The notes under the pieces: generated by a model | Database searches by the model: none | The model's input: only the letters and a program-made list of their open reading frames with translations | Told to the model about the DNA's origin: nothing | Source: Candidatus Electronema halotolerans | GTDB taxonomy: Bacteria; Desulfobacterota; Desulfobulbia; Desulfobulbales; Desulfobulbaceae | Assembly: GCA_942493095.1 (NCBI GenBank) | Contig: OW818675.1 | Coordinates: forward strand, 2,910,001 to 2,942,000 | Direction: 5' to 3' | Length of the DNA: 32,000 nucleotides | Translations under genes and position numbers: made by a program | Shown here: positions 1 to 32,000 of the stretch, one piece after another | How positions within the stretch are numbered: the first letter of the stretch is position 1 | Layout of the letters: the number at the start of each line of letters is the position of its first letter

Positions 1-42
1 CGCAAGTTTGTGGTCTATGGTGAGGGCGAGATTCGCCAGTAA
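1..42 (+). CDS. proA: 3' end of upstream gene, possibly gamma-glutamyl phosphate reductase (partial)
   Basis: Frame 1 reads RKFVVYGEGEIRQ then TAA at 40-42. A G.G.IR-type C-terminus directly upstream of nadD fits the common proA-nadD synteny. Only 13 codons are visible. Confidence 0.35.
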   Translation, partial: RKFVVYGEGEIRQ

Positions 43-47
43 GAATA

Positions 48-638
48 ATGGAGCGGATCGGGCTGTTCGGCGGCACCTTTGACCCAGTGCATTGCGGCCA
101 TCTGGCGATTGCCGAGCAGGCTGCGGAAGAACTGCGGCTCGCCCAGATGCTCTTCATCCCGGCTCCTGATCCGCCTCATAAGCGAAAGACGACAGCGACT
201 TACGGGCAGCGGGTCGCCATGCTGGAGCTGGCCTTGGCCGACCATGATCGCTTCAGCGTCTCCCTGCTGGAGTCTGAGCTGCCCAAACCTTCCTACACGG
301 CTGACACCCTGCTGGAGCTGCGCAAGCGTCTGGCCGGGCAGTTTTATTTCCTCATTGGTGCGGATTCGTTGCTGGAGCTGCACCTCTGGAACCGCTTTCA
401 GGATTTGCTCAAGCTGACCAAATTCATCGTCATTTCACGGCCCGGCATTCCGCTGCCAGCCATGCGGCAGGCGATGGAGCGGCTGCCCGGTAATTTTGTT
501 CCGCTCGTCAACCGGCTGAAGGAGGATGTTTCATCCACTGCGATTCGGGCGCAGTTGCGGCTGGGCGAAAAAACAGAGCTATTGGATAGGCGGGTGGTAG
601 GGTATATTGAGCGGGAGAGGTTGTATAAATCTGTCTGA
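48..638 (+). CDS. nadD: nicotinate-nucleotide adenylyltransferase
   Basis: 196 aa. The N-terminal GLFGGTFDPVHCGHL motif (nucleotidyltransferase (H/T)xGH) and the C-terminal SSTAIR motif are typical of NadD. Confidence 0.9.
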   Translation: MERIGLFGGTFDPVHCGHLAIAEQAAEELRLAQMLFIPAPDPPHKRKTTATYGQRVAMLELALADHDRFSVSLLESELPKPSYTADTLLELRKRLAGQFYFLIGADSLLELHLWNRFQDLLKLTKFIVISRPGIPLPAMRQAMERLPGNFVPLVNRLKEDVSSTAIRAQLRLGEKTELLDRRVVGYIERERLYKSV

Positions 639-665
639 CAAAAAACAGTCATCTTAATGCAGTAG

Positions 666-1859
666 ATGGAGAATGAAAGAATAATGGGTAAAACTTTTAA
701 AAACAGCGGCGGAGAACAGAACATCGCTCAAGGTGACTATGCTATCGGCAGACAGATAAACACCTTTGGTATCCCTCCAGAAATCTTTGAAAAGTATGCG
801 ACGAAGCTCGCTGTTACAGAATCTGCTTTAAGCAGTTTCTTCAAAACATTAGGAATAAAACAGGTTTCCCTTGACGATATAGATGGCAAATTACGTGAAA
901 TTGCAGCTAATCATAAAGAACTATTGCAAAAATTACAGAATAACGCAGCAGAGTTATCAAAAAAATCAGAAGGTGCAGATATGAGTTCAAATTTGATTTA
1001 TATTGAAATATCAATGAAAGATGCGGAGTTGTATCAGGAGGCGTATGAGATACTGCTCAACAAGCTCGTTGAATGGAATGAAATAGCTATCAATAATGGA
1101 GCATCTAAAGCTCCATATGAATATGAAGTAAAGCGATTGCCAATCATAGTTAATTTTTTTAAGAAAAAAATTGCGTCAGGGAGTTATTTTATCACTGATA
1201 GAGTTAGCGAAGAGACCTTGCGTCTCAAAAAATCAGCTCTTCTTTGTGCTGCACATCAACATGAACAGCAGCTCCTCGAAAAATCAAAGAATGGCTGGCC
1301 ACCAGCAGTGATAGAGGCGGCTAAGGAGAAATCCAGAAGATTCAAAGAGCTTGCCGATAAGATTAAATATGATCTTCCAGAAAATTTGGCAGATATTCTG
1401 CCAAGATCAAATGTAACCGTTAATGATCATCATATCCGAGGCAAGGACTGGGAATGGGATGCGTTTATCAGCCACGCATGGGAGGATAAGGAAAATTTTG
1501 TTGCATCACTTGCTGCTGCTTTAGAGGAACAGGGCTTGAAAATATGGTACGACGAGTCAGTACTTAAAGTTGGTGATAGCCTCAGACGCTCCATAGATAA
1601 TGGATTGTCAAAATCAAGATATGGGATTGTTGTGTTAAGTCATTCTTTTTTGAAAAAAGAGTGGCCACAAAAAGAACTTGATGGGATATTCGCAAAAGAG
1701 CGGAATGGGATAAAAGTGCTGCTGCCGATATGGCATAATATTTCTTCAGAAGATATTGAAAAATTTTCGCCTATGCTGGCTGATCGTCTGGCAGTTTCAT
1801 CCAGCAAAGGACTTCCTCATGTCGTTGAGCAATTGTTGAGTGCGATTCAGCAATCGTAA
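666..1859 (+). CDS. TIR-domain protein with an uncharacterised ~260-aa N-terminal region (candidate defence/NADase effector)
   Basis: The C-terminal ~130 aa read WDAFISHAWEDKENFV..LKIWYDE..GDSL..SRYGIVVLSHSFLKKEWPQKELDG, which are classic bacterial TIR boxes including the W..E glutamate position. The gene is visibly AT-rich compared with both flanks. The start could instead be the ATG at 684, which follows a GGAG at 669-672. Confidence 0.85.
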   Translation: MENERIMGKTFKNSGGEQNIAQGDYAIGRQINTFGIPPEIFEKYATKLAVTESALSSFFKTLGIKQVSLDDIDGKLREIAANHKELLQKLQNNAAELSKKSEGADMSSNLIYIEISMKDAELYQEAYEILLNKLVEWNEIAINNGASKAPYEYEVKRLPIIVNFFKKKIASGSYFITDRVSEETLRLKKSALLCAAHQHEQQLLEKSKNGWPPAVIEAAKEKSRRFKELADKIKYDLPENLADILPRSNVTVNDHHIRGKDWEWDAFISHAWEDKENFVASLAAALEEQGLKIWYDESVLKVGDSLRRSIDNGLSKSRYGIVVLSHSFLKKEWPQKELDGIFAKERNGIKVLLPIWHNISSEDIEKFSPMLADRLAVSSSKGLPHVVEQLLSAIQQS

Positions 1860-2133
1860 GATTGATCGAGCGCGGCAATTTTTCGACTGCCGAAAAACGG
1901 CGGCAATACCGGCAACTCGTGGAAAAAGTCGCTAATGCCGCCGCCTTAAAGCAGGAATTTCAGCGAAAACTCAAAAACGTTGAACAGAGCCTTGCTGCGG
2001 AGAGAAACAGCCCTTGAGCTGCATTGAAGCATCTTGATTTCTGTCCGCAGCCCGTGGCATCCAGCAAAAAAAACGATGCCTTGATATCGCATCATCCGTA
2101 TTAGCCAAGATGATGCGGCAGGGTTCATGCACT

Positions 2134-2850
2134 TCATCCTTGAAGGCGGAAAGACAAGCATTCCATCCACACCATCAATTCTCCCAGCGCGGTCGAGGCC
2201 AGCAAATACGGCTCCTGATGCAGCGTGGCCCGGAGCTGCGTTTCTGCCAGCAGCTTGGACAATGACCATGAGGCCGGATTTTCCTCCGGCGCGGGCAGGA
2301 ACTCATTGACATGACCCCAGAGATGCTGCACAGCATTCCTCAGCCCGCCGATGCTGGGCGGCTGGCGGAGCAGCTCACTGAGCTGGCGGGACAGAGCGGC
2401 AAAGTCGGCCTTGCCGCTGGCTGTTTCCCGGCCAATAGCTTTATACAACTGCACATCACGGGCCAGCACGGAATACTTGTGCTGGCTCCAGAGCTGCTGG
2501 GCATGGCGCGGCAAGGGAATCCGGCCCGGCTCACGATCCGCATATTTAGTCCCAAGCAGCTCGAACTGAGCTGCCGGTTCATCAAGATAAAGCGCAGGCC
2601 ATGCCTCGCTGCCGGGCGGCACTGCGACTGGCGACTGCTCCTTGTAGCCGCGCAAGGTCATTTCGCAGGCAAGCTGCTGGTGCCGCCAGGCCAGAGCTGG
2701 CAGGCAGTCTGCCCAGCGCAGGGTTTCCGGGTGCCGGGCATAGCCTTTCTTTTTATTGAGCAGAATTGAGATGATGGCATGCAGCTCCCGGTGCTCGCCC
2801 AGCAGACTCTGCCGGTTGAGATAACCGGGGCTGATGTCCCAAATCCTCAT
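2134..2850 (-). CDS. pyrimidine dimer DNA glycosylase / endonuclease V (Pyr_excise)-like N-terminal domain protein
   Basis: From the internal ATG at 2850 the product starts MRIWDISPGYLNRQSLLGEHRELHAI..KKKGYARHPETLRW, matching the T4 DenV-like family signature (L..EHrEL). This ATG overlaps the upstream gene's TGA (ATGA at 2847-2850). The C-terminal ~130 aa are not recognised. Confidence 0.6.
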   Translation of the reverse strand: MRIWDISPGYLNRQSLLGEHRELHAIISILLNKKKGYARHPETLRWADCLPALAWRHQQLACEMTLRGYKEQSPVAVPPGSEAWPALYLDEPAAQFELLGTKYADREPGRIPLPRHAQQLWSQHKYSVLARDVQLYKAIGRETASGKADFAALSRQLSELLRQPPSIGGLRNAVQHLWGHVNEFLPAPEENPASWSLSKLLAETQLRATLHQEPYLLASTALGELMVWMECLSFRLQG

Positions 2851-4760
2851 GCGCTGCCGTCTGCGCCGGGCAGCCTGCTCCGGCAGGCCGCGAGAATATG
2901 CCCCAGCATCTGGCTGTAGGAAATGCCCTGCAAGGCCGCCATCTTGGCCAAATGGCCGTCCCAGCACCAGCCCGGATTGGGGTTGACCTCCAGCAGCCGG
3001 GGCGTGCCGTTGTCGTCAATGCGCCAGTCAAAACGGGCGTAATCGCGGCAACTGAGCCGTTCAAAGAGCTTGACGCAGCTTGCTCCAAGAAAGCGCTCCA
3101 CATCCTCGGACAGATTGGCCGGAATTGATTTGATTTTCCAGTAGGGCGAACTGGGGTCCCATTTGGCCTCATAGCCGCATAAGCGCGGCAGTCCTTCTGG
3201 CAGGGCCGAGTAATCCTCCTCAATCACCGGCAGAATCATGTACGAGCTGCCCGGATTGCCGATAATGCCGACGCTGATGTCCTTGCCAGTGAGAAACGCC
3301 TCCACCAAAATCGGGTTATTGTAGCCGAACTTGTCCCGGATGCCGGTCACTGCGCTTTCCAAGGCTTGCAGATCATGGCAGACATTGGCTTGGGTGATGC
3401 CAAAGCTGGAGTCGCCGAAGTTGGGCTTGACAATCACGGGAAAGTTGAGCGGAAACTCAATGAACTGAATATCTTCCGGCTTGATCATGAAGGCCGGGGG
3501 CACAGGGATGTCCATTTCCTTGGCAATGCCCCGGATCAGCGACTTGTCGTAGCAATAGGCCAGACACTGGGGATTGCCGCCGGAATAGTGCAAGCCAAGC
3601 ATTTCCAGCAGGGCCGGGACATGCAGCTCCTTGAGGGCCTCGTTCTGAAAGCCCTCGTCGCAGAGATTGAAGACATAGCTGCATTTGCCTTGCAGCCTGC
3701 TCAAGTCCTGAATCAGGGTGTCGTGCCGGTCCAAATAGGTGAAGGTGCAGCCCGGCAGCTCGGCCAGAGCCTTTTTCAGCTGGTTGATGGTGTGGAAGTC
3801 GTCCTCATCAAAGCTGCTGCCCGGCTTGACCGCATCGCTCTTGCCCGGATCGCCGAGCAGGACAACCACGGCATCTGTCCTGTCCGCTTTCTTCTCGACC
3901 ACGGTCCATGCTTTTTCAGCGCAGGCCGTGACCACCACCCGCTGGGCCATCATGCCCAAGTCCTGATTCCGCTTTGATTCGGCAGCAACTTGGGAACAGC
4001 AGCAGCAGGCTGTGAAACCGGCCTTGGTCAGCAGCTGCTCAAGATCATTGCGCGAATAGAGCCGCTCGGCATAGAACTGATCGGCAATCACGCCCTTGCT
4101 GACATGGGTGATCACCTCTCTGGAAACCAGCCGCTCCCCATTCTCGGACAGCGAGCGTTCCCGGCAGACAAAGTAGTTCTTGTCGATCCATTCCCAGCTC
4201 CGGGCCTCAAAATGCGCCCGCATGTAGTCGCCGTCCGTGATGTCGATCAGCAGCTTGCCGCTGGGCCGCAGCACCCGCAGCACTTCTTTGAGAATGCGGT
4301 CGTCGTCCTTGCTCGAATCAAAATAGCCAAAGCTGTTGCCTGCGATCAGCACTGCCTCAAAGCTGTCAGGAGCAAAGGGCAGCCTGCGGGCATCGCCCTC
4401 TTTGAAGGCCACATTCAGGCCCCTGCCTTTGGCCACCTTGCGTGCCCGGCTGATCAGATAATGGGAGCGGTCCAAGCCGCTGACATTGCTCCAGCCCCGG
4501 CTGGCAATTTCCAGCGCATGGCGGCCCTGGCCGCAGCAGAGGTCAAGGATGCGGCTCTCCTTGGGCAAATTAAGAGCGGCAAGATAGATGTCGGTCTCGT
4601 TCTGGGTGATGTCGCTGTCCTCCACCACGTCGCCGTCCGTGCGCAGATAGTTGGCATTGAACAGATGCCGCCACCAGTCCGCCTTGACATAGCTTTCCAG
4701 ATTGTCAACCGGCCCCAGCACCTCGACGATCTTTCTGTTCTTCTTGTTCGATTTTGACAT
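2847..4760 (-). CDS. fusion protein: class I SAM-dependent methyltransferase (N-terminal) + D-Ala-D-Ala-ligase-like ATP-grasp domain (C-terminal)
   Basis: Start chosen at ATG 4760 (MSKSNKK...), preceded by GGAAG. The methyltransferase motif I is ILDLCCGQGRHALEIA and the post-I motif is FKEGDARRLPF. The C-terminal half carries FPVIVKPNFGDSSFGI, ILVEAFLTGKDISVG and LLEVNPNPGW, typical of the Ddl/ATP-grasp fold. Confidence 0.8.
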   Translation of the reverse strand: MSKSNKKNRKIVEVLGPVDNLESYVKADWWRHLFNANYLRTDGDVVEDSDITQNETDIYLAALNLPKESRILDLCCGQGRHALEIASRGWSNVSGLDRSHYLISRARKVAKGRGLNVAFKEGDARRLPFAPDSFEAVLIAGNSFGYFDSSKDDDRILKEVLRVLRPSGKLLIDITDGDYMRAHFEARSWEWIDKNYFVCRERSLSENGERLVSREVITHVSKGVIADQFYAERLYSRNDLEQLLTKAGFTACCCCSQVAAESKRNQDLGMMAQRVVVTACAEKAWTVVEKKADRTDAVVVLLGDPGKSDAVKPGSSFDEDDFHTINQLKKALAELPGCTFTYLDRHDTLIQDLSRLQGKCSYVFNLCDEGFQNEALKELHVPALLEMLGLHYSGGNPQCLAYCYDKSLIRGIAKEMDIPVPPAFMIKPEDIQFIEFPLNFPVIVKPNFGDSSFGITQANVCHDLQALESAVTGIRDKFGYNNPILVEAFLTGKDISVGIIGNPGSSYMILPVIEEDYSALPEGLPRLCGYEAKWDPSSPYWKIKSIPANLSEDVERFLGASCVKLFERLSCRDYARFDWRIDDNGTPRLLEVNPNPGWCWDGHLAKMAALQGISYSQMLGHILAACRSRLPGADGSA

Positions 4761-8398: not shown

Positions 8399-9286
8399 AT
8401 GAACAGAAAGATTTTAGTCGCAGTTGATGGTTCCGTACACAGCTCCAGCTGTCTTGACTATTTGATCCGGCTTTTCCGCAATGATCAGGACTTCCATGTT
8501 GATCTGCTCGCCGTGGTTTCGGCGTATGCTGCCACGCCTGTCCAGATAGAAGAACGCCGGAAGCGATTCTGCAGCTATCTTCAAGATGCCAATAACCGCC
8601 TGCTGCGCAACGGCTTCAGCGAGGAACGGCTTTCCTGCTCTGTCAGCACAGGGGCTTTTGGGATCGCCGCCTCCATTCATCAGCATCTGCTGCGCGGCAA
8701 ACACGACAGCCTGCTGATCGGGCGGCGGGGCATGGGCCGGATCGGCGAGCTGCTGCTGGGCAGCGTCTCAGCAGAGCTGCTCCCCCGCTGTCACGAAACA
8801 CCGATCTGGCTGTTAGACGGCAATGTCGCTTCAAACCGCTTCCTGCTCGCCGTCAACAGCAGTCCCAGCTCGCTCTTGGCTGCGGATCATCTGTCATTCA
8901 TCCTCAGCGGCTGCCCGGACACTGAAATTTTTCTCTATCATTCTTATGCCTTGTTCGGTTCCGCCCCTGCCGCGCCGCTGGAGGATTTTGAGCGGCAGTG
9001 GGGCGCGACCTGGTGCGCCAAGCATCTGGATTTTGACACCTGCCTCTATCAGGCCCACACCAAAATTCTTTTGGACAACGGGATTGAGAAGCGGCAGATC
9101 ACGCCGGTCCTGCCGCATCGAGATTTTGAGGTCGGGCATGACCTGCTCCGGCAGGCGGAACGGCATGGCTGCGGCACCATTGTCGCAGGCCGCCGGGGCG
9201 CGGATGCAACTAAGGGCCTGCTCGGCGGGGTCTCGGACCGGATGGTGCGGCAGGCGGAAAACTTGGCCATCTGGATTGTCGGCTGA
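8399..9286 (+). CDS. universal stress protein, tandem Usp domains
   Basis: Start at ATG 8399 after GAGGAGG. KILVAVDGSVHSSSCLDY opens the first domain and RFLLAVNSSPSS the second. G.RG..G...LLGSV motifs occur twice (IGRRGMGRIGELLLGSV, AGRRGADATKGLLGGVS). Confidence 0.8.
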   Translation: MNRKILVAVDGSVHSSSCLDYLIRLFRNDQDFHVDLLAVVSAYAATPVQIEERRKRFCSYLQDANNRLLRNGFSEERLSCSVSTGAFGIAASIHQHLLRGKHDSLLIGRRGMGRIGELLLGSVSAELLPRCHETPIWLLDGNVASNRFLLAVNSSPSSLLAADHLSFILSGCPDTEIFLYHSYALFGSAPAAPLEDFERQWGATWCAKHLDFDTCLYQAHTKILLDNGIEKRQITPVLPHRDFEVGHDLLRQAERHGCGTIVAGRRGADATKGLLGGVSDRMVRQAENLAIWIVG

Positions 9287-9398
9287 AGAAAGATCAATGC
9301 AGGAAGTTGAGAAGGCTTTGCAAATGAGATAAGATGAAATCAGTCAGACTGCGCGCCGCAGTTTTTTGATCTTCTGCCGGTTATGGGAGCAAACACCA

Positions 9399-10478
9399 AT
9401 GAAGCCTGTTGAACTGCGAGAAAATGTCTGGTGGTTAGCCAGCCGTTCCGACTCCCTGCTGGAGGTCAATGTCTATCTCCTCTGTTATCCGCATGACAAG
9501 GGGCGGGCTAATCTGATCGTCGATCCTGGCCCGCCGGAGCTGCTCACCTGCCTGCAAAAGGCGACCGTGCCGATCATCGGCGGCTTGGAGCATGTTGACG
9601 GCATTCTGATCAATCATCAGGACCCTGATGTGGCCACCAATGCCGCCTACATTCAGAAGCTCAATCCCAAGTGCATGACGGTCGCTTCAGAAGACACGTG
9701 GCGGCTGATTCATTTTTTCGGCCTCAAGGCCAGCCGCTTCAAGGCGGTGGAGAGTTATCACAACCACCGGGCCACCATGCCGGGCGGCTGCCGCCTCCAT
9801 TTTGTCGGCTCGCCCTTCTGTCATTTCCGGGGGGCGATGATGTATTATGACGAGCGCAGCCGGATTCTTTTCTCCGGCGACCTCTTTGGCGGCCTCTCCT
9901 ACACTCCTGATCTGTACGCCACAGAAGCCTCCTGGGACGGCATCAAGACCTTTCATCAGCTCTACATGCCCTCGCGGGAGGCACTCCGGCTGGCTGTCTC
10001 CCGGATCCGCAATCTGGACCCGCCGCCAGACATGATCGCCCCGCAGCATGGCGGCATCATTCAAGGCGGGCTGCTTAAAGATTTTGTTGACCGGATCTAT
10101 AATTTGGATGTCGGCTTGGACCTGCTCGTGGCCAGCGAGAAAGAGGAGAATTATCTTGGCGCGGTCAATGAAATTTTGGCTGAACTGGAACAGGAAGAGT
10201 CTGCCGAGGCCTTGGCCAAGGGCATTGCCGCCCTGAATCAGGACCGCTCCTTCACCAGCATCATGACCTTTGCCGGCACCAAGGTGACTGCCTTCAAAGT
10301 TGATCCGCCGACCGCAATCAAGACCCTGCTGACCCATCTCCGCAAGCATGGCGGCTTGGGACTGGAGAGTTTGGTCAACTTGGTGGCCTTGAAAGTCCTG
10401 ATAGGCCGGAACATTCCAATCAGCGACATTCTGCCGCAAAACTGGGACGGCGAAGATTTGCCTGACTATTTTGAATAA
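9399..10478 (+). CDS. MBL-fold metallo-hydrolase domain protein (flavodiiron/ODP-like beta-lactamase fold) with an uncharacterised C-terminal domain
   Basis: Start at ATG 9399. VYLLCYP...LIVDPGP, then ILINHQDPDV (a variant of the HxHxDH metal motif), HFVGSPFCHF and LFSGDLFGG fit the MBL-fold order of motifs. Confidence 0.55.
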   Translation: MKPVELRENVWWLASRSDSLLEVNVYLLCYPHDKGRANLIVDPGPPELLTCLQKATVPIIGGLEHVDGILINHQDPDVATNAAYIQKLNPKCMTVASEDTWRLIHFFGLKASRFKAVESYHNHRATMPGGCRLHFVGSPFCHFRGAMMYYDERSRILFSGDLFGGLSYTPDLYATEASWDGIKTFHQLYMPSREALRLAVSRIRNLDPPPDMIAPQHGGIIQGGLLKDFVDRIYNLDVGLDLLVASEKEENYLGAVNEILAELEQEESAEALAKGIAALNQDRSFTSIMTFAGTKVTAFKVDPPTAIKTLLTHLRKHGGLGLESLVNLVALKVLIGRNIPISDILPQNWDGEDLPDYFE

Positions 10479-22227: not shown

Positions 22228-22240
22228 AGAGGTATTGATC

Positions 22241-23509
22241 ATGACTATGAAACAGCAAATAGCTTCCGCTTCCCAAAAGCCGAGAGCTTTCGCCAGTGAA
22301 TTTTTCAGCTATGCCATCAAAGGAGGAAACCTCTACTATGGCTGGCTGCTCTTTCTTTCCTTTTTTGTCCTTGTGGGGCTGTACACCACCTACGTACAGA
22401 TGACCAAGGGCCTCATCGTCACCGGGGCCACAGACCAGATCATCTGGGAGCTGTTCATCTCCAACTTCATCTTCACCGCCCACATTGCGGCGGCGGCAGT
22501 GCTGGTGGTGATTCCCGCTTATATCTATAAGCGCGAAGACATGAAGCATTTGGCCGTTCTTGGCGAGATCATCGCCCTGACCTTCGTCATTATCGGCCTC
22601 AACTTCATCATGTATCACCTGGGTCGGCCAGACCGGTTCTGGCATGCGCTTCCTGGATTGGGCATCTTCAACTTTCCCAATTCAATGCTCACCTATGACA
22701 TCATAGTGCTGAACACATACCTGGCCATCAACTTGGTGGCGGTTTTCTATCTGTTGTACAAGCGCTATCTTGGTCAGCCGCTGAACACCATGTTTTACAC
22801 CCCGTTGATCTACTTGGCCGTGGTTTGGGGGCCGCTGATTCATATCGTCACCGCCTTCATCCTCAGCAGCAATGCGCCAATCTCGGCCTGGCATACGGCG
22901 GTGCTTCCCTTTGCCTTTTTATCCATGGCAGGCGCATCAGGAGCAGCTTTGGTCATCATCCTGTTCCTCCTGATTCGCAAATACAGCAAACTGCATATTG
23001 CCGACTCGGTTATTGACTTCTTTTCGCAGGTCATTGTCTGGAGTCTGGGGATCATCATTCTGGTCTTTGCCTCTGAGTTTTTTACGGAGCTGTATCCAGG
23101 CACCCATCATGCCGCGTCCCTGAAGTACATGATGTTTGGTCATCACGGTCTGGATGCTTATGTCCCGTGGTTTTGGCTGACTATGGCCCTGATCGTGCTT
23201 CCGTTCCTCCTGATGCTCAACAGCAAAATACGGAAAAGCTACAACAGTTTCCTGCCAGCGATCTGTTTTGTGGTCTTCATGACCATCCTGATGGAAAAAC
23301 CGGCAGTCTTGGTCTTTCCGGCCTTCAGTCCGACCTCATTGGGTGAATATGCCGTGTATCATCCAACCTTTGTTGAAATCTTCAACGTCCTGTTCATCTG
23401 GGCAGTCGGCTTTCTTATCCTGACTTTGCTCACCAAGGGTGCTCTTGGCGTGTTGACCGGTGAAGTGCGGAATACCAAAACAGTGGAAGCAAGTGGAGAT
23501 GCGAAATGA
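22241..23509 (+). CDS. NrfD/PsrC-family integral membrane quinone-interacting subunit
   Basis: Start at ATG 22241. The ~420-aa polytopic hydrophobic protein follows the FeS subunit directly, the canonical NrfD position. Its stop overlaps the next gene's ATG (ATGA at 23506-23509). Confidence 0.75.
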   Translation: MTMKQQIASASQKPRAFASEFFSYAIKGGNLYYGWLLFLSFFVLVGLYTTYVQMTKGLIVTGATDQIIWELFISNFIFTAHIAAAAVLVVIPAYIYKREDMKHLAVLGEIIALTFVIIGLNFIMYHLGRPDRFWHALPGLGIFNFPNSMLTYDIIVLNTYLAINLVAVFYLLYKRYLGQPLNTMFYTPLIYLAVVWGPLIHIVTAFILSSNAPISAWHTAVLPFAFLSMAGASGAALVIILFLLIRKYSKLHIADSVIDFFSQVIVWSLGIIILVFASEFFTELYPGTHHAASLKYMMFGHHGLDAYVPWFWLTMALIVLPFLLMLNSKIRKSYNSFLPAICFVVFMTILMEKPAVLVFPAFSPTSLGEYAVYHPTFVEIFNVLFIWAVGFLILTLLTKGALGVLTGEVRNTKTVEASGDAK

Positions 23510-24336
23510 TTTCAGGGAGCAAATACGTGAGAGCAGCGGTTTTCTCCGGTCTTCTTGTCTTAGTGATCGGCGGCTTGGCACTCCAAAAGATGCCTGGCGA
23601 GGCTGCTGCGCAAGACAAGGCCGGGGCCGGGCAAGATAAGGCCAATGCAGCACCGGATGAGTGCTACGAGAGCATCAAAGATGCCACCAATCTTGCAAGG
23701 GTGGATAATGCGGTCCCCAAGTACGGTTATCCCAATGTGAAGTGTTCCCCCACCACCGGGGCAGTCCTCTGGTACGGTGATCCTTACTATGGCACTGAAC
23801 CTATTGGAGAAATGCCGCACTTCAACGACCGGACCGATGGCGACTTTGCCCAAGCGGTCATCAGGCCCCGTGCGAAGAGCTTGAAAACTCCCATGCAGTG
23901 CAGCGGCTGTCATCCTGGTGCGGATCCGGCTACGCAGAAAAATGATCCCCGCCAGATCATGAATCACCAAGATATTGTCAGCGATGCCAGCAAGCTGCAG
24001 CATGGCCGGGGAGCCATCTGGTGCTTTGACTGCCATAATGCTGCCAATCGTGACACCCTTGTTGACCGTCGCGGGCAAGAGGTCAGCTTTAATGAGTCCT
24101 ACAAGGTCTGCGGCAGCTGTCACGGTGACACCTACAGCAATTGGCGCATGGGCATCCACGGCAAGCGTATTGGCTCATGGAAAGTGGGAGGAAAAAAACG
24201 GTGGTGGACCTGCACGGAATGCCACAATCCCCACACTGTTCAGGAGCATCGCTTTCAGCCGCTTAAACCTGAACCGCCACCAGCCCTGCCCCGTGGCATG
24301 ACCAAGGAAGACTTCAAGGCTGCCGAGGGTCACTGA
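23506..24336 (+). CDS. membrane-anchored/periplasmic tetrahaem cytochrome c
   Basis: It has an N-terminal hydrophobic anchor (AAVFSGLLVLVIGGLAL) and four CxxCH motifs: CSGCH, CFDCH, CGSCH, CTECH. Confidence 0.8.
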   Translation: MISGSKYVRAAVFSGLLVLVIGGLALQKMPGEAAAQDKAGAGQDKANAAPDECYESIKDATNLARVDNAVPKYGYPNVKCSPTTGAVLWYGDPYYGTEPIGEMPHFNDRTDGDFAQAVIRPRAKSLKTPMQCSGCHPGADPATQKNDPRQIMNHQDIVSDASKLQHGRGAIWCFDCHNAANRDTLVDRRGQEVSFNESYKVCGSCHGDTYSNWRMGIHGKRIGSWKVGGKKRWWTCTECHNPHTVQEHRFQPLKPEPPPALPRGMTKEDFKAAEGH

Positions 24337-24594: not shown

Positions 24595-24670
24595 GGGTCG
24601 TTAACTCAGCCGGTAGAGTATCTGCCTTTTAAGCAGAGAGTCGCGCGTTCGAATCGCGCACGACCCACCA
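24595..24670 (+). tRNA. tRNA-Lys (anticodon TTT)
   Basis: GGGTCGTTAACTCAGCCGGTAGAGTATCTGCCTTTTAAGCAGAGAGTCGCGCGTTCGAATCGCGCACGACCCACCA forms a cloverleaf with anticodon loop CTTTTAA, T-loop TTCGAAT and encoded CCA. Confidence 0.92.
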
Positions 24671-24683
24671 TTGTGCATTACTG

Positions 24684-24758
24684 GTCCCCATCGTCTAGTC
24701 AGGTCCAGGACATCGGCCTTTCACGCCGACAACACCGGTTCAAATCCGGTTGGGGACG
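24684..24758 (+). tRNA. tRNA-Glu (anticodon TTC)
   Basis: GTCCCCATCGTCTAGTCAGGTCCAGGACATCGGCCTTTCACGCCGACAACACCGGTTCAAATCCGGTTGGGGACG has acceptor GTCCCCA/TGGGGAC, anticodon loop CTTTCAC and T-loop TTCAAAT. CCA is not encoded. Confidence 0.9.
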
Positions 24759-24770
24759 CAAGAAATAATA

Positions 24771-24806: not shown

Positions 24807-25162
24807 TCTGGAGGGCGTTTGAAGACCTTGGCCGCTGTTTCTCTCAAGCCGGTGAAAACGCCTTTCGGCATCAAAGATAGAATCACGGATGGCGTTTTTT
24901 CAGATGTCGCCTTCCTCTCTACGTGCTCAACGCCTTTCGGCATCAAAGATAGAATCACACCCAAGGCCCGGAAAATTCGGCAAGCTGCTTGGAGTGCTCA
25001 ACGCCTTTCGGCATCAAAGATAGAATCACGGACAATCGTCATTCCTGAAGATGGTTCCGGCGGGTGCTCAACGCCTTTCGGCATCAAAGATAGAATCACA
25101 CGGCCCGCAGATCGGCCTGTCCTCCAAGTTTGTGTGCTCAACGCCTTTCGGCATCAAAGATA

Positions 25163-25288
25163 TAGCGGTTACACGCCGAATGGTGATCACCCTGATATAT
25201 TGATGCTTAATTTAACTTGTTGAATTTATACATACAAAACTTTTGACAAAGCAAAGATATTTGATAGCCGTTCAACCCATAACCGCTA
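25163..25288 (+). mobile_element. 126-bp MITE-like non-autonomous element, copy 1, inserted in CRISPR repeat 5
   Basis: Repeat 5 is split as ...CATCAAAGATA | element | TAGAATCAC. TA is duplicated at 25161-25162 and 25289-25290. The termini are TAGCGGTTA...TAACCGCTA (9-bp perfect inverted repeat, about 27 bp imperfect). The core is AT-rich and has no ORF. Confidence 0.85.
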
Positions 25289-25720
25289 TAGAATCACAAC
25301 ACTTGGCCAAGAAGATACATAAAACCGTCATGTGCTCAACGCCTTTCGGCATCAAAGATAGAATCACAAGATCATGACCGCAGACCGCAAAACAGTCCAA
25401 ACGTGCTCAACGCCTTTCGGCATCAAAGATAGAATCACCGACCACAGGCACGAGAACATGCAGCCAACGATCTATTGCTCAACGCCTTTCGGCATCAAAG
25501 ATAGAATCACTTGTTCTTCCGCCGACAATAGCAACGATCAGCATGATTGCTCAACGCCTTTCGGCATCAAAGATAGAATCACGTACAATCGGCTTGCCAA
25601 AGGCAGGCGGTTAATGCAGGGTGCTCAACGCCTTTCGGCATCAAAGATAGAATCACAGGAGCCTTGAAATCAATATGCTCCAATTGAAAATGTGCTCAAC
25701 GCCTTTCGGCATCAAAGATA

Positions 25721-25846
25721 TAGCGGTTATGGGTTGAACGGCTATCAAATATCTTTGCTTTGTCAAAAGTTTTGTATGTATAAATTCAACAAGTTAAATT
25801 AAGCATCAATATATCAGGGTGATCACCATTCGGCGTGTAACCGCTA
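25721..25846 (-). mobile_element. 126-bp MITE-like element, copy 2 (exact reverse complement of copy 1), inserted in CRISPR repeat 11
   Basis: Base-by-base comparison by hand shows 25721-25846 equals the reverse complement of 25163-25288. The insertion point within the repeat is the same, with TA duplicated at 25719-25720 and 25847-25848. Confidence 0.85.
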
Positions 25847-26464
25847 TAGAATCACGAGCAGTTGCTTTGGATTCAGTGGGGTCAATGGGTGGTGCTCAAC
25901 GCCTTTCGGCATCAAAGATAGAATCACGGGGCAAAGAAAAAAATCTTCGATGCTTCCATGAAAGTGCTCAACGCCTTTCGGCATCAAAGATAGAATCACA
26001 TCCTCAACAGCGCGGAGATGCTGTCGAGGTAGTGTGCTCAACGCCTTTCGGCATCAAAGATAGAATCACTCACGCTCTGACTCAACCTGCGCGTACATCC
26101 TCATAGTGCTCAACGCCTTTCGGCATCAAAGATAGAATCACGCCTTTCGCTGGCGATCACTGAGCCAAGAATAGGGGTGCTCAACGCCTTTCGGCATCAA
26201 AGATAGAATCACGTAATCTTGTAGCCTGCTCCGGCATGGTTATCAAGTGCTCAACGCCTTTCGGCATCAAAGATAGAATCACAGTACTCCCTGTTTTGCT
26301 GACATCTGCTCCAGTGAGTGCTCAACGCCTTTCGGCATCAAAGATAGAATCACTACCACAAACTCTTTCAGGTACTCAGCACAGCAAAGTGCTCAACGCC
26401 TTTCGGCATCAAAGATAGAATCACGCGCCCTTGTCTGTGGTAGGTTACGCCTACGCTGTGTGCT

Positions 26465-27352
26465 GGTAATGGTGAATCGTGAGTGATGGGTTGAAAATAT
26501 GTTGAAATTGATGGAAAATATAATATACTGGCGGCAAGGGATGCTCTCTGTCCCATCGGCTCTTCGTCGGATGCGCATGTCAAGCCGTCATTATGAAAAA
26601 AACAAACATGGAGAAGAAAGCTGTGCAATGCCCAAGATGTGGTTCATCAGTCATTGTGAAAAATGGCTCCAATGCGAATGGGAAAAAGAAATTTTTATGT
26701 AAGGACTGCTCACGTCAATTCGTTGAGAATCCTCAGAACAAAACAATATCTGATGCTGAATGGCGCATAGTTGATAAGCTTCTTGTTGAAAGAATCTCAT
26801 TGGCTGGGATTGCGAGAGCCGTTTCCATCTCAAAAAGATGGCTTCAGGAATATGTTAAAAAAAAACGAAATGAAGTCAAAAAAGAGGCTTTCAATATGTC
26901 CCGCAACGGAAAAATCTTCATCGAAGCCGATGAAATGTGGACTTTCGTTGGTGACAAGGAAAATGATATTTGGATATGGCTTGCTATCGAGAGAAGAACA
27001 AAGCTTATTGTCGGGTATCATGTTGGAAAAAGAGATAATGCAGGAGCAGCCGCCTTGTGGGACTCCCTTTCTGAAGATTGCAAAAAGAACGGAATATTTT
27101 TTACGGATGGACTCGCCGCTTATTCGAGCGTGTTTCCAGCTGAAAGGCATAGAATTGTCAGCAAAGGAAGCGGAAAAACAAGTCATATCGAAAGGCTCAA
27201 TTTGACATTCAGACAAAGATTGTCTGCACTTGTCAGAAAGACCATTTCATTTTCGAGAAGCATCGAAAATTTAACTGCATCTGTCTGGAGGTTCATTCAA
27301 GATTATAATAATAATCTTTTGTTTAATTGATCACTCACAGTTCACCATCACC
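26465..27352 (+). mobile_element. IS1-family insertion sequence (888 bp) inserted in CRISPR repeat 20
   Basis: The terminal inverted repeats are GGTAATGGTGAATCGTGAGTGAT (left) and GGTGATGGTGAACTGTGAGTGAT (right, reverse complement), which start GGT(A/G)ATG as in IS1. The 7-bp direct repeat GTGTGCT flanks it at 26458-26464 and 27353-27359. It contains a single transposase ORF. Confidence 0.9.
26593..27330 (+). CDS. IS1-family transposase (fused InsA-InsB type, single ORF)
   Basis: It has an N-terminal zinc finger (CPRCGSS...CKDC), an HTH-like region (ISLAGIARAVSISKRWL) and a DDE-domain block (FIEADEMWTFVGDKENDIWIWLAIER...FFTDGLAAY...KTSHIERLNLTFRQRL). The stop codon lies in the right inverted repeat. 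Confidence 0.88.
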   Translation: MKKTNMEKKAVQCPRCGSSVIVKNGSNANGKKKFLCKDCSRQFVENPQNKTISDAEWRIVDKLLVERISLAGIARAVSISKRWLQEYVKKKRNEVKKEAFNMSRNGKIFIEADEMWTFVGDKENDIWIWLAIERRTKLIVGYHVGKRDNAGAAALWDSLSEDCKKNGIFFTDGLAAYSSVFPAERHRIVSKGSGKTSHIERLNLTFRQRLSALVRKTISFSRSIENLTASVWRFIQDYNNNLLFN

Positions 27353-28355
27353 GTGTGCTCAACGCCTTTCGGCATCAAAGATAGAATCACATGCTGCACC
27401 TGCGGGAAGCTGTACATGGAACCGGTGCTCAACGCCTTTCGGCATCAAAGATAGAATCACCGTTACAAGACGGCTAATCAAGTCTGCTGACTCAGGTGCT
27501 CAACGCCTTTCGGCATCAAAGATAGAATCACAAGCCCCAAGGCGCGTTTGTGAGAATAGTTATCAATTGCTCAACGCCTTTCGGCATCAAAGATAGAATC
27601 ACTTGGTTGACTGGATTAAAAATAACAGGTATTCTGTTTGCTCAACGCCTTTCGGCATCAAAGATAGAATCACAAAGGTAGAGGGCAACCGATCAAAGGA
27701 AAAAACTTTTGCTCAACGCCTTTCGGCATCAAAGATAGAATCACAGCCCTTCCTGCAGCCCTCTGCTGACGGGCTGCGCAGCACGACAAATCAAGCTGGC
27801 CTGCTGTTCTGTTTCCGCTGCTTGCAAAACAAGCAATTCTTTCCACCCTCCTTTTGCTCAGGTTAATGATTTCAGATGAAAAAATCCACATTCAAGCACC
27901 TGCTGCCCCTGTCGGCGGTCAAAATCAGCCGCAGCCGCAGCACCTTGCCGCCGCTGCCTGCAACCGTGCTGATACTATCATGAATATCCATGAATTGGCA
28001 AGCGGATATTTATATCAGGCTGCTGAATTTTTGGTATTCTCCCTCTTGAGAATTGCTAAATAATTGTTTATCCTTCTGTGTCTGTCAACCTCTTTCTTAA
28101 AGAGCAGCATGGTTGTTATCGGGAAACAACACGCAACAGGGTGACGAGCAGCAATTCCTCCCGAAAAAAATTCATGCCGTCACACACCACAAGGCTTCGC
28201 GCTGAAGGTGATCAGCATTCAGCCTCTATGAATAGGCAGCAAGTTGGGTTACAATAAAAATCACAAAGCGACACTGACCACTTTCTACCGGGCGGCTCAC
28301 AGCTTGTCTGTCTGTCTGCCTGTTTGGATGAACACTGCCTGCCACAGGAGAAAAC

Positions 28356-29657: not shown

Positions 29658-30076
29658 ATGCCGCCAACCCGGCCCGGCTGGCTGATATTTTCACCTGCGC
29701 CCGCTGCGGCTTCTGCTGTCAGGGGGAAACCACGGTCTCGCTTGATCAGGATGATCAGGAGCGGATGATTCGTGCGCTCGGTCTGTCCCGGCAGGAGGTG
29801 GAGGAACAATACTGGCGCGTGACCGGCACGGTGGTGCAGATGAAAATAGTTGATCATCACTGCATTTTTTACAGCCCAGAAAGCGGCTGCACCATCCATG
29901 AGGGCCGTCCGTGGCGGTGCGGCCAGTGGCCTCTGCATCCAAGCATTCTGACCGATGAAAACAATTTCCGCACCATCCGCGAGTCCTGCCCCGGCATCAA
30001 CCAAGAGATCAGCTGGGAGCAGTTCTGCGCCGTGTTCAGACAGCTTTTAGAACAGGAAGGAAGGCTGCGCTGCTGA
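29654..30076 (+). CDS. YkgJ-family cysteine-cluster protein (UPF0153)
   Basis: Start at ATG 29654, overlapping the nuclease TGA (ATGA). CARCGFCCQGE...HHCIFY...GCTIHEGRPWRCGQWP is the YkgJ/FliB-type Cys pattern. Confidence 0.7.
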   Translation: MNAANPARLADIFTCARCGFCCQGETTVSLDQDDQERMIRALGLSRQEVEEQYWRVTGTVVQMKIVDHHCIFYSPESGCTIHEGRPWRCGQWPLHPSILTDENNFRTIRESCPGINQEISWEQFCAVFRQLLEQEGRLRC

Positions 30077-30146
30077 TCAGTTTGCTTTTGTTTGAAAAAA
30101 ATGATGCGTGACACGTGAAGACCGCCAGGATTTTTTTGTTTTTTCC

Positions 30147-30175
30147 TTGATATTTTTTGCATTTTGTTTTATGTT
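30147..30175 (+). promoter_or_regulatory. candidate sigma70 promoter for the secreted repeat-protein cluster
   Basis: TTGATA (30147-30152), a 17-nt T-rich spacer, then TATGTT (30170-30175). It lies about 55 nt upstream of the ATG at 30232 in an AT-rich intergenic region. Confidence 0.4.
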
Positions 30176-30231
30176 AAAAGTAGGTGGAGGTGTGGAAACT
30201 GGCAGTTGTTCTCAGTCAAAAGGAGATCAAG

Positions 30232-30678
30232 ATGTGGAAAAAAATGAGTGTCGCAATAGTGTTGGGGCTGTCCCTCAGCCCTTCGGCAGTCATGGCCACG
30301 ACTGAGCCGTTCAGTCCTTTTGCAGGTATTGTGGAAGGAATTGCTCAGAGCATGGCCGCTGGCAGCTATGCAAGCGAGTCAAATTATGACGGTGACACCA
30401 CCGGCAATGGTGCCCGCATGGCAGGCAACGTGATCATCGGCAGTGAAATGGACAGCCAGCAGCAGGTTGCGGTTGTTGAAGGCACAGTCAGTCTGACGAT
30501 GAACGGCAGCAGTGACACTGCTCAGGCGCTGAACTATAACAAGCATAATGGCGGCACAGAGCTGCCAGTGCTGATCATGCAGGGCGCAACCATCAGCGGG
30601 GGTGTTGAGATGGCTTCGTCCAACAGCCAAGGATCTGAGCAGGGCATCAATGTGGTGATCGGCGACAGCGGTCTGTAA
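30232..30678 (+). CDS. secreted Q/N/G/S-rich repeat protein, paralogue 1
   Basis: Start at ATG 30232 after AAGGAG. The signal peptide is MWKKMSVAIVLGLSLSPSAVMA. It contains ESNYDGDTTGNG..AGNVIIG, VAVVEGTVSLTMNGSSDTAQALNYN and SSNSQGSEQGINVVIG, and is clearly paralogous to the next gene. Confidence 0.65.
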   Translation: MWKKMSVAIVLGLSLSPSAVMATTEPFSPFAGIVEGIAQSMAAGSYASESNYDGDTTGNGARMAGNVIIGSEMDSQQQVAVVEGTVSLTMNGSSDTAQALNYNKHNGGTELPVLIMQGATISGGVEMASSNSQGSEQGINVVIGDSGL

Positions 30679-30798
30679 ATGCTTATGGCATGCAGGCTGG
30701 ATATTGCCGTTTCTGTCAGCACTGCGGCTGAAGACCTGAGTGCGGGTTGAGCAGGGAGGAGACTTGCGCCATATTCCGACTGTCAAAGGAGTCCGAGC

Positions 30799-31245
30799 AT
30801 GGAGGGAAAAATTTGTTTAATCATCATCTCTTTGGCAGGATTGGCCTTTGAGCTGCTGAGTCCTCTCAGAGCTGTGGCAGCGGACATGTCAGTGTTTGAT
30901 CAGTTTGCTGATGCGTTTGGCAGCGGTCTGTTTCAAGGCGTGATGATCAACAGCGAGTTGAGCTTGGAATCCAATTACAGCAGCGGTAATTTGCAGGGAA
31001 TAAACATTATCGCAGGCAATTACAATGTGAATGCTGTCCAGGTTGTGGCGGTGACAAGTGATGTTTCCCTCAGTCTCTCAGGGGGAGAAAATGCTGTGCA
31101 GGCCCTCAACATCTATCAGGGCAGCGCGGACGGAATAACTCAGATCGCTGTTATTGACGGTTCGGTGAGCATGACTTCATCCAACAGCAGTGGTGGAATT
31201 CAGGGCATCAATGTCATCACAGAGTCCTGCGATTCCTGCAATTGA
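30799..31245 (+). CDS. secreted Q/N/G/S-rich repeat protein, paralogue 2
   Basis: AAGGAG is followed by a 7-nt spacer before the ATG. The signal-like N-terminus is LIIISLAGLAFELLSPLRAVAA. It contains ESNYSSGNLQGINIIAGN, VQVVAVTSDVSLSLSGGENAVQALNIYQG, ITQIAVIDGSVSMTSSNSSGGIQGINVI and a C-terminal CDSC. Confidence 0.65.
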   Translation: MEGKICLIIISLAGLAFELLSPLRAVAADMSVFDQFADAFGSGLFQGVMINSELSLESNYSSGNLQGINIIAGNYNVNAVQVVAVTSDVSLSLSGGENAVQALNIYQGSADGITQIAVIDGSVSMTSSNSSGGIQGINVITESCDSCN

Positions 31246-31589
31246 TGATTATGAAAAAACTGCTTTTTATTCTTGCAGTGGCTGTCTGCTCCTTCCCGCT
31301 TCAGCAGAGCCACGCGGATGACATCAGAATTGCCTCGATTCCAGATGTGAATGTGACTCCAAGTTTGGAGTCTGTTCTCAGGCAGAAAGACAGCATCCTC
31401 CAAGAAACACAGGAAACAACTGGACAGGAAGCGCAGATCAGCACGAACGGATATGTGCTGGATAACGGCAACATTGTGGTTGACAATCTTGCGGAGCCGA
31501 AATGCGTCTTTTATGGCAATTACAATGATGGCTCCGGCGATGCGTTTCAATATATTGACATTGACACCTTAGTGCTTAACTGCCAGTAA
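31245..31589 (+). CDS. small secreted protein (hypothetical), third gene of the cluster
   Basis: ATG 31245 overlaps the previous TGA by 1 nt (ATG 31251 is an alternative). The signal peptide is MKKLLFILAVAVCSFPLQQSHA. No family was recognised. Confidence 0.55.
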   Translation: MIMKKLLFILAVAVCSFPLQQSHADDIRIASIPDVNVTPSLESVLRQKDSILQETQETTGQEAQISTNGYVLDNGNIVVDNLAEPKCVFYGNYNDGSGDAFQYIDIDTLVLNCQ

Positions 31590-31695
31590 GTTCCTCCAAG
31601 CGGGAGCCGCAGTCTCATCTCTTTTTCTTCTTTCCTCCCACTCCCACAGCTCCGATGAGAACAATTTCCGTTTTCGTTTAAGGCAGGAGTCAACT

Positions 31696-32000
31696 GTGTT
31701 TTGCCGGGCCAGCAGTCTGAAGATCACGACACCTTGCATCAAGGCGGCTTGGCTGACAGGCGCGGTTCTCCTCATGTTCGCCTTGGCTGGCTGTATCAAT
31801 ACCAGTGTCACGGCCCTATCCAACATCACTGCCGAAACCCCCCAGCCTGCTCTGACCAATCTCACTGAAACCTTGAAGTGCATGGGCGGGAAGATCAACC
31901 AGTCGGACATGAAAGGCATTCTCCTGCTGGTGGATGATTTTTATGACGGCACTGTTCCGGTGCTCTCGGAAAGCAGAGCGGCATTGCTCCGTCAGCCCAG
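31696..32000 (+). CDS. lipoprotein, truncated by the window end (N-terminal region reminiscent of CsgG/LpoB-type lipoproteins)
   Basis: It is not in the ORF track because it is open-ended. A GTG at 31696 lies 6 nt after AGGAG. Hand translation gives MFCRASSLKITTPCIKAAWLTGAVLLMFALAGCINTS...LTETLKCMGGKINQSDMKGILLLVDDFYDGTVPVL, with lipobox LAGC. The hydrophobic strand followed by D..(N/D)GT resembles the first strand of CsgG (GKIFVSVYNIQDETG) and LpoB (GSVLLVDSVNNRTNG). Confidence 0.5.
   Translation, partial: MFCRASSLKITTPCIKAAWLTGAVLLMFALAGCINTSVTALSNITAETPQPALTNLTETLKCMGGKINQSDMKGILLLVDDFYDGTVPVLSESRAALLRQP

Follow-up and report, generated by a model that had tools for sequence, protein, structure and literature searches.

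To our knowledge, two systems that export functional amyloids have been described in Gram-negative bacteria, the curli of Enterobacteria and the Fap of Pseudomonas. In published structures, two hairpins set the pore-forming lipoprotein CsgG apart from LpoB, PelC and LptE, and as far as we know the two long amphipathic hairpins are absent from these proteins as well as from FlgT, HpaA and GNA1162. FapC is composed of three imperfect repeats of ~35–40 residues; every repeat makes up a single cross-beta layer, which is held by conserved Asn/Gln (PMC12392863). The analysis presented here concerns a 32,000-nucleotide stretch of the cable bacterium Candidatus Electronema halotolerans (contig OW818675.1, positions 2,910,001 to 2,942,000 of the forward strand; hereafter the window), and in particular four open reading frames (ORFs) at its end, all on the + strand and spanning 30232–32000, which encode two secreted repeat proteins (A and B), a small secreted protein (C) and a lipoprotein (D). 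We propose, with a probability of about one half, that this module is a curli/Fap-like secretion-assembly system for extracellular, amyloid-like surface fibres, made of protein families not yet described. The remainder of the window is ordinary chromosome; it is the cable-bacterium host that gives the module its above-average interest.

The original prediction, based on the DNA of the window, had described four genes in this layout with the last one cut by the window end, two secreted paralogues of 148 residues each, and a small secreted protein whose gene overlaps that of B. All of this stands, as indicated by the ORF positions, the common strand, the Sec-type signal peptides read by eye in A, B and C, and the overlap at 31245. 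The two subunits are indeed paralogous, sharing 38% identity (BLASTP, E = 2e-6). The local self-alignment of B scored 66–67 in comparison to 26 ± 5 for 2000 shuffled sequences (z ~8), none of which reached this value. The repeat of A taken alone was not significant (z 0.6–1.7) and became visible only through the homology to B and the family alignment. The earlier claim that the motifs occur twice per protein did not survive, as the real unit in B is a set of three imperfect copies of ~34 residues (residues 44–77, 78–111 and 112–146). The alignment of 41 family sequences showed a Gln/Asn period of 34–35 residues with invariant Q46/Q81/Q115 and N69/N104/N138; further conserved positions are listed with the repeats in Table 1. 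B carries the conserved motif FDQFADAF..GLFQG in its N-terminal part and CDSCN in its C-terminal part. The C-terminal CxxC was considered as an obligatory metal site and rejected, since orthologues have 0, 1 or 2 Cys residues; the A protein of the window lacks the motif, and its lineage is without the C-terminal Cys pair present in some other A orthologues. Both mature subunits are acidic and poor in Lys/Arg, with two such residues in mature A, none in mature B, and 0–4 in the mature parts of close relatives of B. Mature B without Lys or Arg is therefore expected to yield no peptides in standard tryptic proteomics. Neither subunit matched a Pfam family at E<=1 or any NCBIfam family. A profile search of 5.8 billion sequences retrieved 57 homologous proteins, and scanning 1.84 billion representatives in full with HMMER gave only 31 clusters at 50% identity, all of them 126–226 residues long.

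The structure of B was modelled with AlphaFold2 on the 41-sequence alignment. The model has a predicted local distance difference test score (pLDDT) above 90 over roughly residues 45–140 and contains nine strands, three in each of three layers, with a short N-terminal helix (residues 35–42) in front of them. B is thus confidently predicted to be a three-layer beta-solenoid. Foldseek found no significant match for this model in the PDB; the best one was the FapC amyloid (E = 8.7e-3, probability 0.25, template modelling (TM) score 0.14), and the other matches were beta-solenoids of various kinds; the CsgA fibril ranked 18th. The subunits had no sequence match in the PDB and no sequence similarity to FapC. 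The expectation of a beta-solenoid was borne out at the level of prediction, and the paralogues match no known family. The resemblance to CsgA that had been suggested from the string LNIYQ is superficial. When the 41-sequence subunit profile was compared with E. coli CsgA by hhalign, the probability was 0.5% and only LNIYQ was aligned, pointing to an isolated coincidence of five residues. The curlin repeat (PF07012) comprises ~19–23 residues of the type S-x5-Q-x-G-x-G-N-x-A-x3-Q folded as strand-turn-strand, whereas here the period is 34–35 residues and each layer has three strands.

A compact solenoid of this kind does not have to polymerise. A and B might be capped, small surface or periplasmic binding proteins or adhesins, with C and D acting as their exporter, chaperone or anchor. 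We consider this doubtful. AlphaFold2 does give B as a compact monomer, in which the N-terminal helix may cap the first layer, while the Cys pair at the C-terminus of many orthologues could cap the last one, and the Foldseek neighbours include many monomeric solenoids, among them ice-binding proteins and the SV2 luminal domain. AlphaFold2, however, predicts the fibril-forming CsgA as a folded monomer too, and a solenoid of three layers would be very short for a stand-alone binding protein. Moreover, two paralogous subunits encoded beside a lipoprotein of predicted CsgG fold mirror the CsgA/CsgB and FapC/FapB pairs, and the seven-fold tandem of A-type genes found in one species (see below) fits a bulk structural protein.

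Lipoprotein D is truncated in the window. Its full length of 393 residues was obtained from contig L001 (L001:3974-5155), found by an exact look-up of B. Forty homologues were detected, all at E<=1e-118, and those with a named source all come from cable bacteria (Ca. Electronema, Ca. Electrothrix and the single-filament genomes 'Desulfobulbus sp. F1/F4/TB'), the closest named ones being 77–84% identical. The Cys-containing lipobox is kept in D orthologues with a complete N-terminus. No match to PF03783 (CsgG/HfaB) at E<=1 was found in 23 D orthologues or in the distant D-like proteins, hhalign of D against E. coli CsgG gave a probability of 0.4% with both the cable-only and the diversified profile, and CsgG was absent among the PDB sequence matches of D found by phmmer and hmmsearch. 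At the level of the predicted fold the result was different. The best Foldseek matches of the AlphaFold2 model of D were CsgG chains (4uv2, 6l7a and 4uv3; E = 3.7e-5, probability 1.0), with TM-scores of 0.42–0.45 normalised on the target and 0.26 on the query. The support for a CsgG fold is moderate because the overall pLDDT of the model is only 62.8. The next matches were HpaA, FlgT, PelC, LptE and LpoB; for the lipoproteins of this fold class, with GNA1162 included, E ranged from ~4e-5 to 5e-3.

The order of elements in D follows that of CsgG: a helix, strand 1 ending in DGT, a long loop at the position of the CsgG constriction loop, and then a helix, a strand, hairpin 1, two strands, hairpin 2 and a long helix. 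The amphipathic hairpins lie at about residues 179–204 and 241–255, where CsgG has TM1 and TM2. In the predicted monomer their lengths are 32 and 28 residues, their hydropathy alternates, and their sites are equivalent to those of the CsgG hairpins, which build the 36-stranded barrel of a nonamer. Hydrophobic residues alternate with polar residues or glycine in the hairpin columns even among homologues of 24–29% identity. Both hairpins have low pLDDT, as expected in a monomer model. Pfam and NCBIfam recognise a single domain in the whole module, the peptidoglycan-binding domain PG_binding_1 (PF01471) at residues 317–356 of D. In D itself the match is marginal (23.2 bits at a gathering cut-off of 23), yet it recurs in all 23 aligned D orthologues (best E = 2.2e-5). 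According to the model, D is a lipoprotein of CsgG-like fold that lies outside the CsgG/HfaB family by sequence and has an extra peptidoglycan-binding domain. It plausibly forms a pore. The proposal that the lipoprotein is CsgG-like was accordingly upheld by the predicted fold, with CsgG as the top Foldseek match, and failed at the sequence level, with no PF03783 match and hhalign probabilities below 1%.

Orthologues of C share a conserved N-terminal peptide (IK..IPDV...PSL.SV), followed by a variable linker and a C-terminal domain of the pattern TNGY...VD...EPKC.FYGNYNEGSGDAFQ...C with two conserved Cys residues. C had no match in Pfam or NCBIfam, and hhalign revealed no similarity to CsgE, CsgF or CsgC. 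By the likeness of its layout to that of CsgF, an adaptor role of C is proposed.

A genome scan yielded 11 loci, all of them in cable bacteria (seven Electronema species, an uncultured Electrothrix metagenome-assembled genome (MAG), Electrothrix YB6 and two Desulfobulbaceae MAGs), and the order A-type, B-type, C, D was found in each of them. In Electrothrix GW3-4 and E. gigas, a single subunit gene precedes C and D. Each of the 13 cable-bacterium loci has C placed between D and a subunit gene. The module is present in both cable-bacterium genera at every locus examined, and it was not detected in other Desulfobulbaceae by a word-limited search. A gene for a YkuD L,D-transpeptidase is located downstream in nine of the 11 genome-scan loci. 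The subunits diverge faster than the lipoprotein (27–70% versus 55–84% identity), which fits the expectation for exposed proteins. Electrothrix YB6 (L016:4881-8540, CP178758.1) has seven tandem A-type genes, six of which are 100% identical units of 537 base pairs (bp). Ridges of unusual width as well as nanofibre sheaths have been reported for this strain (PMC12093952); the coincidence of the A-type amplification with these structures is only a correlation, drawn from a single case.

Four loci outside cable bacteria combine a homologous subunit with a D-like lipoprotein, and three of them have a C-like gene as well. In Neisseria animaloris, the C-like protein matched C with E = 1.6e-5 and the D-like protein matched D with E = 4.7e-17; the latter has no peptidoglycan-binding domain and gave no match to plasmids in a tblastn search. 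The D-like lipoprotein is encoded in all three further metagenomic or genomic contigs, and the C-like gene in two of them (L022 and L023). One of these contigs has parD near the module. Another, 3.72 Mb long (L021), places it near conjugation and recombinase genes: it is flanked by genes for a TraG/TrwB-type coupling protein (1-3058) and a serine recombinase (8447-10009), and such neighbours hint that the module can travel on integrative elements. These distant loci define a recurrent core of a subunit and a D-like lipoprotein, usually with C between them, that is not restricted to cable bacteria. Co-occurrence and gene order, which the original prediction had named among its checks, hold for the 13 cable-bacterium loci and, as far as the pair of subunit and D-like lipoprotein is concerned, for distant bacteria.

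With such conservation, the view that the ORFs are chance, non-functional frames whose repeats reflect composition can be regarded as refuted. Nothing speaks for it beyond the absence of annotation. Against it stand the 57 profile homologues and the 31 clusters of similar length among 1.84 billion proteins, an order of genes kept across genera, the confident structure prediction for B and a repeat z-score of ~8.

Several observations were made on the surroundings of the module in other genomes. In two non-cable modules an extra small lipoprotein gene follows the D-like gene (L018:9799-10341 and L023:2678-3121); the D-like proteins of these loci lack the peptidoglycan-binding domain, and BLAST detected no similarity between the two extra lipoproteins. 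In Electrothrix GW3-4 the module is located just behind the murB-ftsQAZ cell-division cluster, and a gene for an omptin-family outer-membrane protease comes directly after D, overlapping its stop codon (L024:9182-10162). Just past the window end, directly downstream of D, lies a gene for a fusion of rhodanese and metallo-beta-lactamase (L001:5270-6442), a fusion described as the 'Rho-PDO' type (PMC13047784). A gene of this type is located between D and the YkuD gene in this lineage and in Electronema KV and JC. The upstream genes for DUF6868, CPBP protease, SNase and CxxCxxCC proteins were considered as members of the system and rejected, as they are not syntenic in other genomes.

The coordinates of the features are collected in Table 1. 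The gaps in the series A-B-C-D amount to 120, -1 and 106 bp. The best start of C is ATG, which overlaps the B stop codon as TGATG and agrees with the gene call in contig L001. D starts with GTG after AGGAG, has the lipobox LAGC and continues past the window end. The promoter-like site upstream of A is the sole + strand site found in 29900–32000. It constitutes weak evidence, since the number of such sites is not higher than in shuffled sequences. No terminator-like site on the + strand was found within the A-D cluster. RNA structures or attenuators in the A-B and C-D intergenic regions were considered and rejected, the folding energies being similar to those of shuffled sequences (z 0.13 and -1.29).

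Table 1. Features of the A-D module in the window (conserved residues according to the 41-sequence family alignment; E, predicted strand with its residues).
Feature	Position	Strand	Description
Promoter-like site TTGATA-17-TATGTT	30147-30175	+	upstream of gene A; consensus scan
Gene A	30232-30678	+	secreted A-type subunit, predicted beta-solenoid repeat protein, 148 residues; strong AAGGAG ribosome-binding site
Gene B	30799-31245	+	secreted B-type subunit, predicted beta-solenoid repeat protein, 148 residues; strong AAGGAG ribosome-binding site
B repeat 1, residues 44-77	30928-31029	+	strands E44-50, E54-59, E65-74; invariant Q46, S58, N69
B repeat 2, residues 78-111	31030-31131	+	strands E78-85, E89-94, E100-109; invariant Q81, N104; near-invariant Q101
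B repeat 3, residues 112-146	31132-31236	+	strands E112-119, E123-128, E134-141; invariant Q115, Q135, N138; near-invariant S127
Gene C	31245-31589	+	small secreted accessory protein, 114 residues
Gene D, 5' part (first 101 codons)	31696-32000	+	outer-membrane-type lipoprotein; predicted CsgG-like fold, C-terminal peptidoglycan-binding domain

How might the proteins of the module work together? From the likeness to curli and Fap we infer that D forms a pore, that A and B are secreted through the outer membrane and polymerise, and that A, B and C have separate roles. A, B and C would reach the periplasm via Sec. D would be lipidated, sorted to the outer membrane and assembled into a CsgG-like oligomer whose two hairpins per protein make a beta-barrel pore, with the C-terminal domain fastening the complex to peptidoglycan. 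A and B would pass this pore unfolded, and outside the cell each subunit would fold into three stacked cross-beta layers of ~34 residues with Gln/Asn ladders, so that head-to-tail addition of subunits would build a fibre. B may serve as the nucleator or anchor, in the manner of CsgB or FapB; it is proposed for this role because it is the better conserved paralogue and always adjoins C and D. A could be the bulk subunit, amplified in one species, and C, with its conserved N-terminal peptide, linker and small disulfide domain, may act as a pore-associated adaptor similar to CsgF or CsgE. Should this mechanism hold, the module would represent a third Gram-negative system of functional-amyloid export, uniting a Fap-like subunit architecture with an exporter of CsgG fold.

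A number of points weigh against this proposal. No sequence link to CsgG, CsgA, FapC or any curated family emerged from Pfam, NCBIfam, the PDB or hhalign. The D model is of moderate confidence (pLDDT 62.8) with modest TM-scores to CsgG, the non-pore lipoproteins HpaA, FlgT, PelC, LptE and LpoB score nearly as well as CsgG does, and the peptidoglycan-binding domain of D is foreign to CsgG. In the model of B, helix 35–42 could cap the solenoid end and keep the protein monomeric. Additionally, none of the searched papers or supplements contained the orthologues from Electronema aureum (CDV28_1575-1578 region). The idea of a divergent curli-like system, as originally put forward, is consequently supported at the levels of fold, architecture and synteny and falls short at the level of family membership, as neither curlin nor CsgG/HfaB relatives were recognised.

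The peptidoglycan-binding domain and the scores of the non-pore lipoproteins are also central to a different view, in which the fibre is built inside the envelope. D would then make no pore but act as a scaffold of the LpoB/FlgT/PelC type, anchored in the outer membrane and binding peptidoglycan, and A and B would polymerise in the shared periplasm, for instance as the strand or shell of the conductive fibre, the ridge scaffold or the 'core lamella sheet' of the junction. We judge this to be unlikely. In its favour, PG_binding_1 is found in 23 of 23 aligned D orthologues, the YkuD gene lies downstream in nine of 11 loci, the module is present in every cable-bacterium locus inspected with all close D homologues in cable bacteria, and the members of the fold class that form no pore score close to CsgG. 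Amyloid-like solenoids with Gln/Asn ladders are typically insoluble in sodium dodecyl sulfate (SDS), which also counts in favour of a fibre within the envelope. The fibre skeleton of cable bacteria is SDS-resistant and its proteins have not been identified (PMC11976967, PMC13534509), and mature B, devoid of Lys and Arg, would be missed by tryptic proteomics. However, the module occurs without the peptidoglycan-binding domain in Neisseria animaloris and in contigs near genes of conjugation or plasmid type, and its presence outside cable bacteria makes electrical conduction unlikely as the ancestral function. The two conserved amphipathic hairpins of D, the mark that distinguishes CsgG from LpoB, PelC and LptE, argue against a scaffold without a pore, and the variable number of C-terminal Cys residues (0, 1 or 2) argues against an obligatory metal site.

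Cable bacteria possess several structures with unidentified proteins: the strands of the conductive fibres, the core lamella sheet, a surface layer of ~4 nm and the sheaths (PMC11976967, PMC13534509, PMC12093952). The literature search found no paper that connects amyloid, curli or CsgG with cable bacteria, or that mentions the module. That A and B are the long-sought proteins of a cable-specific envelope structure, nucleated and anchored to the outer membrane and the wall by D and C, seems to us a long shot; candidates would be the conductive-fibre strand or its insulating shell, the scaffold of the ridges or of the junction lamella, the ~4 nm surface layer and the nanofibre sheath. If this were true, amyloid-like insolubility combined with the near absence of tryptic sites would account for the failure of proteomics to identify these proteins. 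The analysis supplies named candidates, e.g., CDV28_1576-1578 in Electronema aureum GS, and formic-acid solubilisation followed by non-tryptic digestion would be suited to finding proteins of the A/B type.

Elsewhere in the window, a CRISPR-like (clustered regularly interspaced short palindromic repeats) array occupies 24849–27760 on the + strand, directly after the genes for tRNA-Lys and tRNA-Glu (24595–24759). It contains at least 25 copies of a repeat of ~36 nucleotides (GTGCTCAACGCCTTTCGGCATCAAAGATAGAATCAC) spaced by 70–72 nucleotides, and is broken by an ORF for an IS1-like transposase (26593–27330) and by two stretches of ~200 nucleotides whose repeat ends are hybrid. The window contains no cas genes. 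In the region 22235–24336 (+), possibly starting from 21193, the gene for an NrfD/DsrP-like membrane protein precedes that for a multihaem cytochrome c. The pair is similar to the dsrOhPh-tetrahaem locus that has been discussed in the context of cable bacteria (PMC13047784). A 397-residue protein with a C-terminal TIR domain, possibly involved in defence or signalling, is encoded at 666–1859 (+).

When the module is set beside the described systems, the likeness is always partial. LpoB, PelC, LptE, FlgT, HpaA and GNA1162 are cell-envelope lipoproteins that share the core alpha/beta fold predicted for D, but their genes are not known to stand beside those of repeat-solenoid subunits. The holdfast-anchor proteins HfaA/HfaB/HfaD of Caulobacter offer another parallel, in that genes for small secreted proteins adjoin the gene of a CsgG-like lipoprotein by which a surface structure is anchored; HfaB, however, belongs to PF03783, to which D is unmatched. 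With curli, the module has in common a pair of paralogous repeat subunits that leave the cytoplasm via Sec, have Gln/Asn ladders and are predicted to fold as beta-solenoids, the small secreted accessory protein, the clustering of the genes, and a lipoprotein whose predicted fold is closest to CsgG and which has hairpins at the TM1/TM2 positions. There is no detectable sequence homology to CsgG, CsgA, CsgE, CsgF or CsgC; the repeat has ~34 residues and three strands instead of the ~22 residues and two strands of curlin, and a subunit has three layers instead of five. One accessory gene is found instead of three, no CsgD-like regulator lies nearby, and D adds the C-terminal peptidoglycan-binding domain that CsgG does not have.

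The resemblance to Fap is one of architecture only. Three layers of ~34 residues with periodic invariant Gln/Asn and a pair of major and minor paralogues are features of both, and FapC is the top, albeit non-significant, Foldseek match of B. The module differs from Fap in having no sequence similarity to it and no long linkers between the repeats. Equivalents of FapA, FapD and FapE are not recognised here, the neighbouring genes are unrelated, and the exporter is predicted to have the fold of CsgG, not that of the FapF-type trimeric barrel. In the architecture predicted for its subunit B, the module resembles FapC more than curlin.

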